A stretch of DNA of 64,000 nucleotides from Verrucomicrobiota bacterium. GTDB taxonomy: Bacteria; Verrucomicrobiota; Verrucomicrobiia; Limisphaerales; UBA1100. The stretch is from the NCBI GenBank assembly GCA_030747505.1, contig JASLKQ010000002.1, positions 17,549-81,548 of the forward strand, written 5' to 3'. Below the pieces are notes generated by a model, which ran no database searches, was not told the DNA's origin, and saw nothing but the letters and a program-made list of their open reading frames with translations. The position numbers and the translations under genes were made by a program. Shown here piece after piece: positions 44,112 through 59,439 of this stretch; within the stretch, counting starts at the first letter, position 1, and each line of letters opens with the position of its first letter.

Positions 44112-47100
44112 ATGGCGGGTAAGGAGGCTCCCACAAGGGAATCAACCAAGGGAGGCGCCAATGAGGTTCTGGGTATCGGCTTATTTGCTTTGGCTATCCT
44201 GTTCCTGTTGGCCCTATTCTCATATGACAAGGGCGATCTGTTGTTTAACGGCACGGAGGTCAATGATCCTCGTCATAATCTTACAGGTATCTTCGGTGCG
44301 TGGTTGGCACAGGGGTGTTTTTTAGCCTTGGGTGTATCAGCCTATCTTCTGCCTCCGTTGACTCTGGTTTTTGCGTTCGGATTTTTAATCAACAAACTGG
44401 AAGGCTTACGCAAGCGCTGGCCTTGGGCTCTGGCGATGATTCTGGCTGGGTCAGCTGGGTTGAGTCTATATCCGAATCTTTTTGGGGGAATAGCCGATCA
44501 GCTAAACACGGTTGATGCAGGGGGTTACATGGGCATGCTGCTCAACAAGGCAATCTTTCAGCATGTGGGCACCGCGGGGGCAACCGTAATTCTTCTTGCG
44601 ATCTACGCTGTGAGCTTGCTCTACATCACTAATTTCCATCTAAAGGATTGGTTAAGGGAAGTATGGCAGCGATGGAAATTGCGCCGCATAGATCGTTCTC
44701 AGCCTCTGGCAGAGGAAGAGGTGAATCTTTCCAGGAAAGAAGATGAATTAACCCAACGCGTAAACGAACTTCAGGAATTGCAACGCAAACTTGAGGCGAC
44801 CCAGTCTCAGGTGGAGCAGACTGCTTTGGCCGCTGAGGAGACTGTGGCTGCCGCACAGGAAGATCCGCGCATTATTGATCTCAGCCAGCCTGGTTCACGC
44901 CAGCCAGGGCAAGAGAATGAATCCGAGGATCAAGAGGAGTCAGTAGACAAGTCTAAACGACAGCTGGCGGCGATCATGTTCACCGATATTGCCGGTTACA
45001 GCCGGATGGCTAATCATGATGAAAAAGCGGCTCTGAAACTTATTAAAAAACAACGTCGCTTACTCAAGCCGATTGTCAAAAAATTTGATGGTGAATGGCT
45101 CAAAGAAATTGGTGATGGTTTGCTCCTGAGTTTTGATAGTTCCATTAACGCTGTGGATTGTGCCATTGCTATCCAGGAGAAACTCCGTGGTGAGCCGCAT
45201 TTGGATCTGCGGATTGGATTGCATCAGGGTGACATTGTTCGTGATGGGAAGGATGTTTTGGGTGATGGGGTTAATATTGCCTCAAGGATTGAGCCTTATG
45301 CTCCAATTGGGGGAGTTGCTCTGTCAGAAAAAATTCAGCAGGATCTCATTAGTCAGCCGGAGTACGATGTGCAGCTACTGGGTGAATTTGCCCTTGAAGG
45401 AGTGGATCAGCGGGTGGAGGTGTACACGCTTAATACCAACTCCGAAGAACTGGAGGAAACCCAACTAATCGAACCTGAAGAAACATTGTTGCCGCCAGAC
45501 GTGGTGGAGAGTGATGAGGCAGGTCCTTCCGAAGAATTGAAGGAGAACCTTGATGTTGCTCCTGCCACATCTGAAGAAGTCCTAGGCGTTTCAAATCCGG
45601 ACGTTGATGAGGGCACCGAATCTTCGGTTCATATTGCTGAACCTGTTTCTAGTACAGGACCTTTGCAGCAACCTAAAACCCGCAAGCCCAAGGCGACACG
45701 TGTTGATCGCGGTCCGTTAATTGAGAATTACAACCTGCCGCCGGCTGATTTTTTACAGGCTCCGGAGTATAACGCGGCTCCAGTAGATTCCACGGAAGAG
45801 CTCAAGGCACAGGCTATTACCATTCAAAAAACTCTCAATCAATTTGGGGTGGAGGTAGCTCTTGGAGACATTACCAAGGGACCAACGATTACCCGCTTTG
45901 AATTACACCCGGCTCCGGGTGTCAAAATGGAAAAGATTACGGCATACGCCAACAACATTACCGCCGCTCTGGAAGCCGAGCGTATAAATATTCTTGCTCC
46001 GGTTCCAGGCAAGAGCACGGTGGGAGTGGAAGTGCCTAATCAGGTGAAGACCAAGGTCATCATGCGAGACTTGCTCGAGAGTGATGAATGGAAGAAGAGT
46101 AAGGCAAAAATTCCTGTGGCTTTGGGAAAAGACGTGTATGGAAAACCAATGATCGCCGATTTGGCGGAGATGCCCCATTTATTGATCGCTGGGGCAACAG
46201 GGGCCGGTAAGAGCGTTTGTATGAATAGTATTATCGCCTCTTTGCTCTACAAGTTTTCACCCGACGAATTGCGTTTGGTAATGATCGACCCCAAGGTTGT
46301 GGAGTTGCAGATGTATAATAAGTTGCCGCATCTGGTGGTTCCGGTAGTGACAGATCCAAAGAAGGTGATTCTTGCATTACGATGGGTGGTGCAGGAGATG
46401 GAAAAACGCTATAAGATTTTCGCGCAGGAGAACGTGAAAAATGTGCATGCTTTCAATAAGCGTTCCTCAAATAAACCTAAACAGGAGGCTGAGCCTGAGC
46501 TGCCGCTTTTCGGTGGCGGAAGGGATCGTGTGGAGGCGGGATCTGAGGGGTTTGCTGTAGAGGTGGATGAAGAGATTGCCGTGCCGCGTGAGGAGGAACT
46601 CGAGATTCCTGATAAGCTGAGTTATATTGTTGTGGTTATTGATGAATTGGCTGATCTGATGCTGACCGCTCCAGCTGATGTGGAAAATGCCATTGCGCGG
46701 ATCACACAGATGGCGCGCGCGGCTGGCATTCACTGTATTGTGGCTACTCAACGCCCGAGCGTGAAGGTGATCACCGGTGTTATTAAAGCCAACATTCCCT
46801 CGCGGATTGCTTTTCAGGTGGCGTCTAAGATCGATAGCCGCGTGATTCTTGATGAGATGGGGGCGGAGAAACTACTAGGTAAAGGCGATATGCTCTATCA
46901 GCCTCCGGGGGCTCCCAAACCCATTCGTGCTCAAGGGCCGTTGGTGGAGGATCATGAAATTGAAAAGATCGTCGACTTTATTGCCGAGCAGGGCAAGCCG
47001 AGCTACGAATTGGAAATTCACAAACAGCTCTCCAAGCCTATGGCTGTTCTCGATGCTGCTCCCAGTGACGAAGAGGAGGAACTCATTCAGCAATGCATCG

Positions 47101-47309
47101 AAGTGATCCGTAGTGAGCAAAAGGCAAGTGTTTCCAAGCTGCAGCGGCGCCTTCGCCTTGGGTATAATCGGGCCGCGCGATTGATGGACGAACTGGAGGA
47201 TCGCGGTATTGTTGGTCCGGCCCAGGGGAATGAACCGCGCGAGATTTTGATTGATCTGGATGGGACGGGTGCCGATGGCCGGGGTCAAACAGTCCACTCG
47301 GTGGTGTAA
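44112..47309 (+). CDS. ftsK: DNA translocase FtsK with an embedded class III nucleotidyl cyclase domain
   Basis: N-terminal 4-TM FtsK anchor. Motor with Walker A LLIAGATGAGKSV, Walker B VVVIDELADL and ATQRPS. Gamma winged helix VSKLQRRLRLGYNRAARLMDELEDRGIVGP. A coiled coil and a cyclase homology domain lie between the anchor and the motor. Confidence 0.93.
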   Translation: MAGKEAPTRESTKGGANEVLGIGLFALAILFLLALFSYDKGDLLFNGTEVNDPRHNLTGIFGAWLAQGCFLALGVSAYLLPPLTLVFAFGFLINKLEGLRKRWPWALAMILAGSAGLSLYPNLFGGIADQLNTVDAGGYMGMLLNKAIFQHVGTAGATVILLAIYAVSLLYITNFHLKDWLREVWQRWKLRRIDRSQPLAEEEVNLSRKEDELTQRVNELQELQRKLEATQSQVEQTALAAEETVAAAQEDPRIIDLSQPGSRQPGQENESEDQEESVDKSKRQLAAIMFTDIAGYSRMANHDEKAALKLIKKQRRLLKPIVKKFDGEWLKEIGDGLLLSFDSSINAVDCAIAIQEKLRGEPHLDLRIGLHQGDIVRDGKDVLGDGVNIASRIEPYAPIGGVALSEKIQQDLISQPEYDVQLLGEFALEGVDQRVEVYTLNTNSEELEETQLIEPEETLLPPDVVESDEAGPSEELKENLDVAPATSEEVLGVSNPDVDEGTESSVHIAEPVSSTGPLQQPKTRKPKATRVDRGPLIENYNLPPADFLQAPEYNAAPVDSTEELKAQAITIQKTLNQFGVEVALGDITKGPTITRFELHPAPGVKMEKITAYANNITAALEAERINILAPVPGKSTVGVEVPNQVKTKVIMRDLLESDEWKKSKAKIPVALGKDVYGKPMIADLAEMPHLLIAGATGAGKSVCMNSIIASLLYKFSPDELRLVMIDPKVVELQMYNKLPHLVVPVVTDPKKVILALRWVVQEMEKRYKIFAQENVKNVHAFNKRSSNKPKQEAEPELPLFGGGRDRVEAGSEGFAVEVDEEIAVPREEELEIPDKLSYIVVVIDELADLMLTAPADVENAIARITQMARAAGIHCIVATQRPSVKVITGVIKANIPSRIAFQVASKIDSRVILDEMGAEKLLGKGDMLYQPPGAPKPIRAQGPLVEDHEIEKIVDFIAEQGKPSYELEIHKQLSKPMAVLDAAPSDEEEELIQQCIEVIRSEQKASVSKLQRRLRLGYNRAARLMDELEDRGIVGPAQGNEPREILIDLDGTGADGRGQTVHSVV
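44958..45431 (+). other. Class III adenylyl/guanylyl cyclase homology domain (aa ~283-440 of FtsK)
   Basis: RQLAAIMFTDIAGYSRM, WLKEIGDGLLLSF, LRIGLHQGDIV, GKDVLGDGVNIASRIE. By-eye alignment to the CHD consensus places all six canonical residues: D292 and D335 (metal), K331 and D381 (adenine-type specificity), N388 and R392. Confidence 0.8.
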
Positions 47310-47350
47310 TTTTCTTTGCCGGCACGGGGCGAAGGCGTAGATTGATCTCA

Positions 47351-48073
47351 ATGGCCGAACTACCAAATATTCAACGTAACTACAAGGTTTGGGCGGCCGA
47401 TGATGTGGTGTATGGTCCGATTGATTTTCCGTTGCTTTCCCAGTGGGTTCGAGAGGCTAGGGTAACTCATGAAAATTGGATTTACACCGAGCAGACTGAA
47501 AGCTGGTCGCGTGCGGCCGCCTTGCCTGAGTTGCGTCTCCATTTCGAGGAAGCTGAAGAGATGCTCAAGCCGGGCACCATTCTTGGTTCCACCGATCCTC
47601 TGATTCCAGGAGTGCCAGTAGGCACGCTTCAAGAGGTGGAGATTTTTAAGGACATGACAGATCGTCAGCGGGGACGGTTTGCCCAATGCATGGAGGTGCA
47701 GAAGTTCACGAAATTTGAAACATTGGTCAAAGAGGGCGATCGCGGAGGGGCCATGTACATCATTTTGGAGGGAGTGGTTCGGGTGCGAAAAATGATTGGG
47801 GGCCGTGAAGACGTTTTGGCAACACTGAGTGCGGGTGAAATGTTTGGAGAGATGTCCCTGTTTGATGCTGAGAAGCGCTCGGCTGATGTCGTGGCTAATA
47901 GTGAAGGAGTTTTGCTGCGCCTGAGTGAGAAGGTGATGAAGGAAATGGTCGATAAACAGGCTGATGTCGTGGTGCCCTTTTTGGTGGAAGTAGCGAAGAA
48001 ACTAGCTGACCGCATTCGTGCTGACAATGAGCGGCATAAAAAAGATACGATTCTCAGGCAGTCTTATCATTAG
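47351..48073 (+). CDS. GYF_2 (DUF4339)-like domain plus cyclic nucleotide-binding (CAP_ED) domain protein
   Basis: N-terminal YKVWAADDVVYGPIDFPLLSQWVREARV...WIYTEQTESW. C-terminal cNMP cassette GGAMYIILEGVVRV...FGEMSLFDAEKRSADVVA with the conserved phosphate-binding Arg. I prefer the ATG at 47351 to the TTG at 47342. Confidence 0.85.
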   Translation: MAELPNIQRNYKVWAADDVVYGPIDFPLLSQWVREARVTHENWIYTEQTESWSRAAALPELRLHFEEAEEMLKPGTILGSTDPLIPGVPVGTLQEVEIFKDMTDRQRGRFAQCMEVQKFTKFETLVKEGDRGGAMYIILEGVVRVRKMIGGREDVLATLSAGEMFGEMSLFDAEKRSADVVANSEGVLLRLSEKVMKEMVDKQADVVVPFLVEVAKKLADRIRADNERHKKDTILRQSYH

Positions 48074-48075
48074 GC

Positions 48076-48858
48076 TCAAACTTCGATTAGGTCGCCATCA
48101 TTGAGGAATGTGTGCGGCAGGTTGCCCAAGATCGATTTGGCTTGGGTTTTCAGTTCATCAATTTTTTTGCGATATGGTCGGGAGAGGTGCATGAAAGCCA
48201 CCTGTCTGATTTCCTTTCCTGCCAAGTAAGTAAATAGTTCCTTTGGTTCAACATGTGCCAGTTCGCAGACCAGCAGGTCAACCGGCTGTGAGAGGAGGGG
48301 GTCAAGGTCCGCAAGACTGCCGATATCCGCACTATGAGCTACCCGTGCTTCCTCTGATTCGAGAAGAAAACTAAAAGCTTCGTATTTGGCAGGATACTTT
48401 TTTACGAAGTGTTCCTTCAATTGATCTAAATGCGAGGAAGGGTGAGGAGTCACGCGTATATCGGATACCTTAAAGGAGGTATCTGCAGTAAGGGCAGTAA
48501 AATTCAGCTCGCAAGGCATGAGCTCCTCAAAGATATAGGCTGCATCAAGCATCCGGCGAACAGGTTCTAACCCCTCTTCAGGCATGTGTACAGTGAGGGG
48601 TCTGGTGCGTTGATCGAGCCAGAAACCTTGCATGAGCATAAAAAACCCGCCCACATGATCACAATGGAGATGACTTAATAGCAACCCATCCAGATCGTCG
48701 GGTTTAACCTCGGCTGAGCGCAGGCTACGTCCTACCGGTTCACCACAGTCAACTAGCAGTGTGGAATTTCCAAGGCGATAGAGGAATGCTGAGTGACCAC
48801 GCTGGTCGCTGGTCCATCCGTCATTGGTGCCGAGTGCATGGAGGGAGGCCTGACTCAT
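48076..48858 (-). CDS. MBL-fold metallo-hydrolase (RNase Z/beta-lactamase-like)
   Basis: HxHxDH motif in LLLSHLHCDHVGG, with downstream His/Asp ligand positions (VAHSADIG, ELAHVE). Confidence 0.8.
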   Translation of the reverse strand: MSQASLHALGTNDGWTSDQRGHSAFLYRLGNSTLLVDCGEPVGRSLRSAEVKPDDLDGLLLSHLHCDHVGGFFMLMQGFWLDQRTRPLTVHMPEEGLEPVRRMLDAAYIFEELMPCELNFTALTADTSFKVSDIRVTPHPSSHLDQLKEHFVKKYPAKYEAFSFLLESEEARVAHSADIGSLADLDPLLSQPVDLLVCELAHVEPKELFTYLAGKEIRQVAFMHLSRPYRKKIDELKTQAKSILGNLPHTFLNDGDLIEV

Positions 48859-48980: not shown

Positions 48981-49502
48981 GTGGCATCTATTGGTGATCA
49001 ATTAAGGCAGGCTCGGGAAGCCCAAGGACTTTCGGTTGCTGAGGTGGTGGAGCAAACCAAGCTGATGACGGACCAAATTCACGCTTTGGAAGCCGGAGAC
49101 TGGGGAGCGTTTGCTGCACCAGTTTATATGCGCGGGTTTGTGCGTAATTATGCGGGGCTCCTAAAGCTGGATGTGGAGGGGGTAATGAAGGGTCTTGAGG
49201 CAGAACTTGGGCAGGTCAAGCCTGAGGTTATTGGGGGGGGTGGGGAAATTCCGCTTCGGGCCGGTCTTCTGGATGGAGTGATGCTCCATTTTTCTGGAGT
49301 AAAGTGGAGGGCAGTCATACCTGTTTTTTTGGTCGTTGGTTTGGCTGTTGGCGTTTATCTGGGGCGTGAAGAGTGGCGTAAATATAAAAGCACCGATCCT
49401 CTTGAAGCCCTAGGTTCCGGGCTGAACGAAGAGACACTGGTTACTTCAGCTGATCAACTTCCCATTGAGTTGCCGGATTCTGGGGCTGCACGTTCGCAGT
49501 GA
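48981..49502 (+). CDS. RodZ-like helix-turn-helix membrane protein
   Basis: N-terminal HTH IGDQLRQAREAQGLSVAEVVEQTKLMTDQIHALEAGDW, then FVRNYAGLL and a single TM AVIPVFLVVGLAVGVYL. GTG start. Confidence 0.65.
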   Translation: MASIGDQLRQAREAQGLSVAEVVEQTKLMTDQIHALEAGDWGAFAAPVYMRGFVRNYAGLLKLDVEGVMKGLEAELGQVKPEVIGGGGEIPLRAGLLDGVMLHFSGVKWRAVIPVFLVVGLAVGVYLGREEWRKYKSTDPLEALGSGLNEETLVTSADQLPIELPDSGAARSQ

Positions 49503-57751: not shown

Positions 57752-57843
57752 CGGCGGGAAACTCGCGTGAACGCGTCGATTTGCCAAGTCAAAACACAGA
57801 AAAGACTCGCCAGCAGCGATCAATCCGCTTTCATGGGGCCCCT

Positions 57844-59439
57844 ATGCGTACCAATTTTTTTCTGAACACTATTATTTTTGCGCTTTTTTGCTCGGGCCTT
57901 TTTGTCGGTTGCGGAAAGGAAGAACCTGCTGGAGGATCTCCCCAGGCAGGTGTCCAAACGGGAAAATCCCAGAGTCCAGCTGGTTCTCCAGATGTCTCAC
58001 CGGAAGCCAAACAAGAACCTCAACCGTTGGATGATGGGCTGTTTGCAGAAATAGAAACCACAAAGGGGAAAATTCGGTTGAAGCTGGAGTTCGAGAAGAC
58101 GCCACAGACCGTCGCTAACTTTGTGGGACTGGCTGAAGGAACAAAATTTTATTCAACCGATGGGAGTGAACCCAAGGATCAAAAAGGCAAGCCCTACTTC
58201 AATGGCCTCAATTTCCACCGTGTGATTGCCGATTTCATGATTCAAGGCGGATGCCCACTGGGCACTGGAACTGGCGGTCCAGGGTATAATTTTGATGATG
58301 AGATTGATGCCACACTCAAGCATTCGAGCTCCGGGGTTTTCTCCATGGCCAATGCCGGTCCCGGAACCAATGGAAGCCAGTTTTTTATTACGCATCGCGC
58401 CACTCCACACTTGGACGGGAAGCATACCGTTTTTGGGAAAGTTGTAGATGCTACCGATCAGGCCGTAGTGAATGCTATTGTTAAAGGCGACAAGATCAAC
58501 AGCGTAACAATCATCCGTAATGGCGACAAAGCGAAGGCTTTTAAAGGGGATGAAGCGCACTTCAATAAATTCGCCGGGGAAAGTAAGAAGCGGCAGGCCG
58601 AGAAGGAAAAAACTGAGCAAGCTAGGTTTGCAGAAAAAATGAAACAGGAAGCAGAGCAAATCAAAACACTACTGGCTACGCTTGAGGAAAAGCATAACGC
58701 AAAAGTCATTTCAGCAACCAACGGTTTGCGCCATATTATCACCAAGCTTGGCTCGGGCGATATGCCTGCGAAAGGCGACAAGCTTAAGGTGAATATCGTA
58801 TTTAAGTTGGCTGATGGAAAAGTGATTGATGATACCCGTAAAAACGAGGCTCCCCTCAAGGTGCCTGTTGGAGCGCCAATGCGACTGAAAGGTTTGGAGC
58901 AGGGCTTGAAAGGTATGAAGAATGGCGAGCAGCGCACAGTAGTCGTTCCCCACGAACTGGGCTTTGGCGCTGCCGGGGCGGGACAGGATATACCGCCTTA
59001 CTCAACCTTGATATTCGAGTTGGAGATTATTGACGTTCAATCAGATAAAAAACAAATTGCTGGGATCATTGCAAAACTGAAAAAAGACCACCCGAAGTCT
59101 GATTTGATCACCACTGAGAGTGGACTGCAGTATGTGAGGACAAAGGAGGGGGCAGGTGAAAAGGCCGGCAAGGGGAAAAAAATTAAGGCACATTATACCG
59201 GCAAACTACTGGACGGGACCGAGTTTGACAGCTCGGTTAAGCGTAGGATGCCTTTTGAATTTGTTGTTGGAACCGGTCAGGTCATCAAGGGCTGGGATGA
59301 AGCGTTGAGTGACATGAAAAAAGGGGAGAAACGCACCCTAATTATTCCCTCTGAGTTGGCCTATGGGGAAAGAGGGAGTCCCCCTAAGATTCCCCCGTCC
59401 TCTACACTTGTGTTTGAAGTGGAATTAGTGGATTTTTAG
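57844..59439 (+). CDS. Lipoprotein dual-family immunophilin: cyclophilin + degenerate FKBP + canonical FKBP
   Basis: Lipobox [23 protein letters not shown]. Cyclophilin [25 protein letters not shown]...[39 protein letters not shown]...[32 protein letters not shown]. Confidence 0.88.

Follow-up and report, generated by a model that had tools for sequence, protein, structure and literature searches.

An FtsK DNA translocase with an apparently active class III cyclase domain inserted into its linker in uncultured Verrucomicrobia

We analysed a 64-kb stretch of DNA from a bacterium of the Verrucomicrobiota (contig JASLKQ010000002.1 of assembly GCA_030747505.1; the whole stretch is hereafter the window) and found that its ftsK gene, here named ftsK-CHD, encodes a complete DNA translocase which carries a class III cyclase homology domain (CHD) in the linker between the membrane anchor and the motor. 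The CHD looks catalytically complete and apparently active. The next gene encodes a protein with a GYF_2 domain and a cyclic nucleoside monophosphate (cNMP)-binding domain (CNB; the GYF-CNB protein), and the one after it, in convergent orientation, a hydrolase of the metallo-β-lactamase (MBL) fold. FtsK and the class III CHD are both well-known families, while their joint architecture and the gene-level tie to a receptor are undescribed. We have high confidence in the architecture and in the evolutionary account of ftsK-CHD given below. The functional explanation that we favour on balance is that cyclic AMP (cAMP) synthesis borne by FtsK reports FtsK assembly and is read by the GYF-CNB protein.

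The FtsK of ftsK-CHD is complete. Significant Pfam matches were obtained for all five domains, i.e. the membrane anchor, the CHD and the alpha, beta and gamma domains of the motor (Table 1), in agreement with the earlier note on this DNA, which had read from the letters an FtsK anchor, a CHD, an acidic linker and a full motor. Both the Walker A (GATGAGKS at aa 694) and the Walker B motif (IDELADL at aa 843) of the motor are intact, and the N-terminus of the protein, MAGKEAP, is the same start as in its homologues. Basic residues flank the anchor on both sides, which places the linker downstream of it in the cytoplasm. The NCBIfam models gave the same picture, with a match of the FtsK equivalog model to the motor and one of the LipJ model, in its cyclase part, to aa 280-440. 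The full-length AlphaFold model was poor overall (mean predicted local distance difference test score, pLDDT, 49.6), and we relied on it solely for disorder, for the secondary structure of individual stretches and for the segment of the CHD; acidic, disordered stretches were predicted at aa 245-281 and aa 443-560. Foldseek aligned the motor part, a low-confidence portion of the model, with 6t8g, 2iut and 2ius at 40-44% identity. The window around ftsK-CHD holds chromosomal housekeeping genes (for ClpB, an aminoacyl-tRNA synthetase, CTP synthase, succinate dehydrogenase and POR), and no second FtsK motor, CHD, CNB or MBL paralogue was found within its 64 kb. Thus ftsK-CHD appears to be the resident ftsK rather than a translocase of a mobile element.

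The CHD has the predicted fold and the active-site residues of a class III cyclase. The Guanylate_cyc profile (PF00211) matched aa 282-441 significantly, with 43.1 bits against a gathering cutoff of 21.9 (E 4.7e-11), so that the domain assignment made by eye in the earlier note is borne out. A phmmer comparison with solved cyclases recovered 3mr7 (E 4.5e-22), Ma1120 (1e-13) and Rv1900c (3e-11), and the modelled CHD (pLDDT 72-86) superposed on the same three structures with target TM-scores of 0.84-0.89 and a root-mean-square deviation of ~2-2.6 Å. Residues D292 (in FTDIAG) and D335 (in IGDG) are the two metal aspartates. In the phmmer alignment K331, D381, N388 and R392 correspond to K101, D157, A164 and R168 of Ma1120, where K101 and D157 specify the substrate, position 164 is the Asn position (occupied by Ala in that enzyme) and R168 is the transition-state Arg (PMC4215837). 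The CHD therefore keeps the Lys/Asp substrate pair (K331/D381) that is typical of ATP use, and this pair was invariant in a 30-member alignment. All six catalytic residues picked out by eye in the earlier note turned out to be in the right register against Ma1120, and they are identical in 30/30 homologues (59-100% identity). Since 69 of the 160 CHD columns are invariant (43%), the finding of six out of six invariant catalytic positions has a hypergeometric P of 0.0057.

In the same family the CHD (mean pairwise identity 0.76, ratio of non-synonymous to synonymous substitution rates, dN/dS, 0.105) is constrained to a degree similar to the beta (0.84 and 0.089), gamma (0.79 and 0.097) and alpha domains (0.76 and 0.144), whereas the linker helix (0.39 and 0.49), the acidic spacer before the CHD (0.36 and 0.49) and the post-CHD linker (0.45 and 0.33) vary much more; all dN/dS values are approximate, with dS near saturation (1.2-1.5). 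These estimates indicate that the CHD is under purifying selection as strong as that on the motor, while its flanks drift. With the full catalytic set kept as well, the domain does not look like a degenerate relic, and we consider it probable that it actually synthesises cAMP.

Outside FtsK, the CHD is most closely related to the N-terminal CHDs found in CHD-TPR proteins (50-58% identity), and as the full D-K-D-D-N-R set is kept in 83 of 101 of these domains, the likely donor family also looks catalytic. This bears on the alternative that the CHD is non-catalytic in vivo and acts as a dimerisation or scaffold module, or as an ATP-sensing one, that regulates FtsK or recruits divisome partners. 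The AdvA protein of Acinetobacter baumannii provides a precedent, as this division protein is likewise anchored in the membrane and has in the cytoplasm a CHD-like domain, the fold of which acts in the divisome by protein contacts (PMC13060281), and purifying selection on the fold alone would be no proof of catalysis. AdvA, however, is not an FtsK and is devoid of the catalytic and dimerisation sites (PMC13060281), whereas the CHD inside FtsK has its catalytic residues invariant well beyond the domain-wide level. In addition, the catalytic set is complete in its nearest relatives, and the gene of a cNMP receptor was brought adjacent to ftsK-CHD. Given these points, a non-catalytic role appears rather improbable.

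To locate the insertion, we compared the linker with those of the closest CHD-less FtsKs (Limisphaerales/subdivision 3). In the latter, the fourth transmembrane (TM) segment is followed by a charged helix (ERRxRELEKQAKxL...), a first motif (LGADxKPVPEPTVRDLSVP), a short variable stretch, a second motif (AATTxDILGK), a variable acidic/Pro stretch, the sequence KPKPITVAxTPxIGNY and then the alpha domain. The three short motifs LGADxKPVPEPTVRDLSVP, AATTxDILGK and KPKPITVAxTPxIGNY are shared by the Limisphaerales FtsK linkers L024, L029, L036, L043, L055, L064 and L086. In ftsK-CHD, motif 1, EDPRIIDLSQPG, is homologous to PVPEPTVRDLSVP of the CHD-less FtsKs and has P252, D256 and S258 invariant in the 30-member alignment, and motif 2, ATSEEVLG, is homologous to AATTxDILGK, with L491 invariant and A485, T486 and G492 nearly so. 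Exactly between these two motifs lies the insert, ~190 aa made up of the CHD and of acidic, disordered sequence on either side of it. The comparison thus indicates that the CHD with its flanks was inserted into the disordered cytoplasmic linker between pre-existing motifs and downstream of a pre-existing helix. The same charged helix is present in the CHD-less sister FtsKs, hence it is a part of the FtsK linker that predates the cyclase. On this point the earlier note, according to which the coiled coil resembles the signalling helix of cyclases, has to be corrected. Motif 1 and a disordered spacer separate the helix from the CHD (pLDDT ~27-34 for aa 245-281), so that the helix is not contiguous with the catalytic domain, nor is it specific to cyclases given its presence in CHD-less FtsKs, while the helical domain of a cyclase abuts and packs on the catalytic domain (PMC5699072).

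Table 1. Features of ftsK-CHD and of the genes downstream of it. Coordinates refer to the window.
Feature	Coordinates	Strand	Details
ftsK-CHD gene	44112..47309	+	1065 aa; resident FtsK with inserted class III cyclase domain
FtsK_4TM membrane anchor	44157..44651	+	aa 16-180; PF13491, 94.1 bits (cutoff 23.1)
Long charged helix	44709..44843	+	aa 200-244; one predicted helix, heptad-spaced Leu 199/206/213/220/227
Ancestral linker motif 1, EDPRIIDLSQPG	44859..44894	+	aa 250-261; upstream boundary of the insertion
Acidic disordered spacer	44895..44954	+	aa 262-281, before the CHD; poorly conserved
Class III cyclase homology domain (CHD)	44955..45434	+	aa 282-441; catalytic D292, K331, D335, D381, N388, R392
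Acidic disordered tail of the insertion	45435..45563	+	aa 442-484
Ancestral linker motif 2, ATSEEVLG	45564..45587	+	aa 485-492; downstream boundary of the insertion
FtsK alpha domain	45735..46040	+	aa 542-643; PF17854, 97.9 bits
FtsK beta (RecA-like) motor	46065..46763	+	aa 652-884; FtsK_SpoIIIE PF01580, 233.8 bits
FtsK gamma winged helix (reads FtsK-orienting polar sequences, KOPS; activates XerD)	47070..47252	+	aa 987-1047; PF09397, 92.2 bits (cutoff 30.6)
GYF_2 + cNMP-binding (CNB) gene	47351..48073	+	240 aa; starts 41 nt after the ftsK stop
MBL-fold phosphodiesterase-like hydrolase	48076..48858	-	HxHxDH at aa 63; convergent with the CNB gene
HTH_25 (RodZ-like) gene	48981..49502	+	ancestral immediate neighbour after ftsK; far edge of the two-gene insertion

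The fusion is not restricted to the window. The five-domain architecture recurs in ~48 protein clusters (59-100% identity) drawn from assemblies of NCBI, ENA, JGI, Logan and TARA, and a scan of one genome per GTDB species found the CHD insert in 14 species representatives. All 14 are metagenome-assembled genomes of Verrucomicrobiota, labelled Verrucomicrobiales, Limisphaerales or 'Pedosphaera sp.', and derive from marine and deep Lake Baikal samples; the hosts form a clade of Verrucomicrobia, marine and freshwater and so far uncultured, that is related to Limisphaerales (subdivision 3). An artefact of assembly or gene calling that joined a cyclase gene to ftsK, a concern raised in the earlier note, is already refuted, as the same uninterrupted open reading frame (ORF) with both junctions recurs in these many independent assemblies and species representatives, the GC content runs smoothly over the two insertion junctions and the ancestral linker motifs flank the insert in frame. 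On the unrooted motor tree, one bipartition unites the motors that bear a CHD, and no other motor is nested within it. A midpoint-rooted tree, on which the CHD group was non-monophyletic, was discarded as meaningless, its root having been placed within that divergent group. Among the matches listed by a HMMER search of 1.84 billion representatives with the CHD, linker and alpha domain as the query, there was no FtsK-CHD fusion outside the clade; these matches reached down to ~158 bits, and more distant fusions below that score fall outside them. Several proteins that matched in two stretches (P0362-P0365, P0391, P0422, P0451 and P0474) were considered as further FtsK fusions and rejected, being tandem-CHD/TPR or AraC-CHD proteins. 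The close relatives of the CHD include proteins with tandem CHDs and TPR and others with an AraC helix-turn-helix (HTH) domain and a CHD (P0362-P0365, P0391, P0422).

The gene order downstream of ftsK-CHD is altered as well. In the window and in divergent members of the family, ftsK-CHD is followed by the GYF_2/cNMP-binding gene, the convergent MBL-fold gene, the HTH_25 (RodZ-like) gene, a rimO-like gene, pgsA and pgpA, while for the plain FtsK of a related lineage the order is ftsK, HTH_25/RodZ, rimO-like, pgsA and pgpA with nothing interposed. The CNB and MBL genes follow ftsK in 13/13 CHD loci for which sequence was available and in none of the 66 closest CHD-less loci (GTDB loci). Both genes have homologues of the same length in CHD-less Verrucomicrobia: those of the CNB protein share ~45-52% identity and their gene follows argS, and those of the MBL protein, including one in Pedosphaera parvula Ellin514, share ~50% identity, with the gene lying immediately upstream of murJ in CHD-less relatives (L089 6001-6783; L090 6001-6834). 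The idea that the two genes are unique to the clade was ruled out by these homologues, and their position beside ftsK alone is clade-specific. Hence two genes that already existed were relocated or duplicated into the place after ftsK, and this happened in the very lineage that gained the CHD. The CNB gene lies on the same strand as ftsK, with a gap of 41 nt in the window and of 41-151 nt over the 13 loci, and no terminator-like site was found between the two genes in the window. As to the next gene, the RodZ-like HTH_25 protein of the window is short, with 173 aa and one TM segment, and without a RodZ_C match; the syntenic gene after a plain FtsK (L087 5458-6165) encodes HTH_25 together with RodZ_C.

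The GYF-CNB protein has the sequence features of a cNMP receptor, which is what the earlier note had proposed for the gene after ftsK. Its cNMP_binding domain (PF00027) scored 78 bits (cutoff 27.5) and the phosphate-binding cassette, FGEMSLFDAEKRSA, is intact, FGE...RSA being present in 39/39 clade members. About half of the CNB copies in CHD-less Limisphaerales (L091/L092 7001-7711; L093 7001-7726) have FGD for FGE in the cassette. The start of the gene is most likely the ATG at 47351 (240 aa) and not the TTG at 47342 of the mechanical ORF call (243 aa), judging by homologue lengths and the sequence. GYF_2 and cNMP_binding were the only domains detected in the protein, with no HTH DNA-binding output, and the NCBIfam match to CRP is limited to the CNB part (50 vs 266 bits); consequently, any output must run through protein contacts. 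The GYF domain might dock on the proline-rich motif 1 of the FtsK linker. In a Limisphaerales 'protein kinase' (P0098), a closely related CHD (54% identity) is listed alongside GYF_2, kinase and WD40 domains, so GYF_2 and the same CHD type co-occur in another protein.

The cassette and the substrate pair also bear on the nature of the product. An active CHD could make cGMP or another cyclic or linear nucleotide in place of cAMP, and cGMP-dependent kinases are among the top sequence matches to the CNB domain in the PDB; the cassette of that domain, however, ends in RSA, as we take that of CRP to do. Ma1120, which has the K/D pair, shows residual guanylyl cyclase activity at alkaline pH, but the Lys/Asp pair, invariant in our family, is the signature of ATP cyclases, and guanylyl cyclases have Glu at the Lys position (PMC4215837). 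A product other than cAMP is accordingly a very improbable outcome.

The second relocated gene encodes, according to its model (pLDDT 93.9), a protein of the MBL fold which has the metal motif and is closest to the small phosphodiesterase branch. The HxHxDH motif is present in 115/120 homologues, and the nearest structures are B. subtilis YhfI, BA1088, an arylsulfatase, Apyc1 (query TM-score 0.70) and RNase Z. We hypothesise that the protein is a cNMP phosphodiesterase. Counting against this role, the Apyc1 profile (PF23023) gave 24.7 bits at a cutoff of 50 and covered the N-terminal 43 residues only, and the gene looks like an orthologue of one that CHD-less Verrucomicrobia widely possess. 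The phmmer matches to the Apyc1 entries of the PDB likewise cover just ~70 N-terminal residues. An outright identification as a cNMP phosphodiesterase was dropped as unsupported, given the sub-cutoff Apyc1 score and the mixed set of neighbours (YhfI, ELAC, arylsulfatase, Apyc1 and RNase Z).

A class III CHD is active only when dimeric, its active sites lying at the dimer interface, and FtsK works as a hexamer at the septum. The CHD of ftsK-CHD is expected to be dimer-dependent as well, and since each copy would be tethered flexibly to one FtsK subunit, catalysis should require that such subunits come together. Assembly might take place in the divisome or in DNA-loaded hexamers, in which six CHDs could give three dimers. 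Isolated CHDs often require such help from the domains next to them, as in Cya, where dimerisation of the CHD needs neighbouring domains to bring the monomers together (PMC5699072). In the explanation that we favour, the CHD makes cAMP, the level of which would signal that FtsK has assembled at the closing septum. The GYF-CNB protein encoded next to it would respond to the cAMP by way of protein-protein contacts, and the MBL enzyme would possibly degrade it. We put forward tentatively that the cyclase is coupled to FtsK assembly and that its neighbours make up a circuit dedicated to it. A more far-reaching proposal is that the three genes form a self-contained septal cAMP circuit which serves as a chromosome-clearance checkpoint. 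The cyclase would then be switched on only when FtsK assembles or loads onto DNA that the closing septum has trapped, the GYF-CNB protein would dock by its GYF domain on the conserved, proline-rich motif that precedes the CHD by ~20 aa and, once bound to cAMP, would modulate the divisome or FtsK, and the MBL phosphodiesterase would reset the signal. We regard such a complete checkpoint as unlikely.

The main rival is an active adenylyl cyclase that is uncoupled from FtsK. The N-terminus and the coiled coil would merely provide an anchor and a constitutive dimeriser, and the enzyme would feed a general cAMP pool that is read by the CNB protein and by other receptors. The heptad-Leu helix does precede the CHD in the sequence and predates it, the long disordered tethers on both sides of the CHD argue against rigid conformational coupling, and the GYF-CNB homologues of CHD-less relatives must answer other cyclases there. 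On the other hand, an insert retained across a whole clade in an essential, constrained division gene would be an odd route to a generic membrane anchor, and the relocation of the receptor gene to the position right after ftsK suggests a dedicated pairing. On these grounds we find the uncoupled enzyme possible but doubtful.

Besides the near-saturation of dS, several further points weigh against cAMP synthesis that reports FtsK assembly. A competent sequence alone is not proof of activity, and domains of the Rv1900c type can be weak enzymes. The ancestral heptad-Leu helix could pre-dimerise the linker and thus render the cyclase constitutive rather than dependent on assembly. The co-occurrence of CHD, CNB and MBL reflects one clade, hence probably one history, and is not an independent replication, and the monophyly of the CHD clade on the motor tree had a bootstrap of only 19/40. 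Finally, the paralogue check spans the 64-kb window, and a second, plain FtsK may be encoded elsewhere.

Compared with known systems, ftsK-CHD shares with the canonical FtsK/SpoIIIE proteins (E. coli, P. aeruginosa; 2ius, 2iut, 6t8g) the 4TM anchor, the flexible linker and the alpha/beta/gamma motor. The linkers of FtsKs described so far lack structure, vary in sequence and are rich in Pro and Gln (PMC5357621), in line with the earlier note, whereas that of ftsK-CHD contains a folded and conserved enzymatic signalling domain. Ma1120 of M. avium, Rv1900c of M. tuberculosis and 3mr7 have the same fold as the CHD, the short dimerisation arm, the metal Asp residues, the Lys/Asp pair and the transition-state Arg; unlike Ma1120, the CHD has the canonical Asn. 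These three cyclases, which we take to be class IIIc-type in the Linder-Schultz scheme, are compact, and in the known relatives the CHD lies at a terminus and is combined with a hydrolase, TPR, AraC or other sensor domain, whereas that of ftsK-CHD sits in the middle of a translocase between disordered tethers. In Cya/Rv1625c and in the mammalian transmembrane adenylyl cyclases the same order of TM bundle, helix and CHD is found, and dimerisation of the CHD is imposed by the neighbouring parts (PMC5699072). The helix of ftsK-CHD differs from theirs in being older than the CHD and in not being contiguous with it, owing to the motif and the disordered spacer in between. Conceptually, ftsK-CHD is close to the DNA-scanning diadenylate cyclase DisA and to the septum-acting diguanylate cyclase YfiN/DgcN, in which a second-messenger synthase is tied to DNA surveillance or to the divisome. 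These enzymes, however, have DAC and GGDEF folds and produce c-di-AMP and c-di-GMP, and neither is fused to a translocase motor.

The window also contains, at 57781-59439 on the forward strand, a single ORF of 552 aa with a cyclophilin-type peptidyl-prolyl isomerase (PPIase) domain and two FKBP-type PPIase stretches.

In the literature we found no description of a cyclase in FtsK, the term "adenylate cyclase" in FtsK papers referring to two-hybrid assays. Together with the protein search, among the matches listed, this agrees with the view taken in the earlier note that the fusion is undescribed. FtsK ties the final stages of chromosome segregation to cytokinesis, and to our knowledge it is only partly understood how the presence of DNA still in the septum is signalled to the rest of the cell. 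We know of no tie between cAMP and FtsK so far, and the only comparable links known to us are those of DisA (c-di-AMP) and of YfiN or PleD (c-di-GMP). If the activity were constitutive or absent, ftsK-CHD would be a domain-shuffling curiosity of one verrucomicrobial clade. The clean domain boundaries and the small size of the CHD render the hypothesis testable in E. coli even though the hosts are uncultured. If it is true, the machine for chromosome segregation and division in these bacteria would itself emit a diffusible second messenger, and the gene of a dedicated receptor would have been moved next to it.

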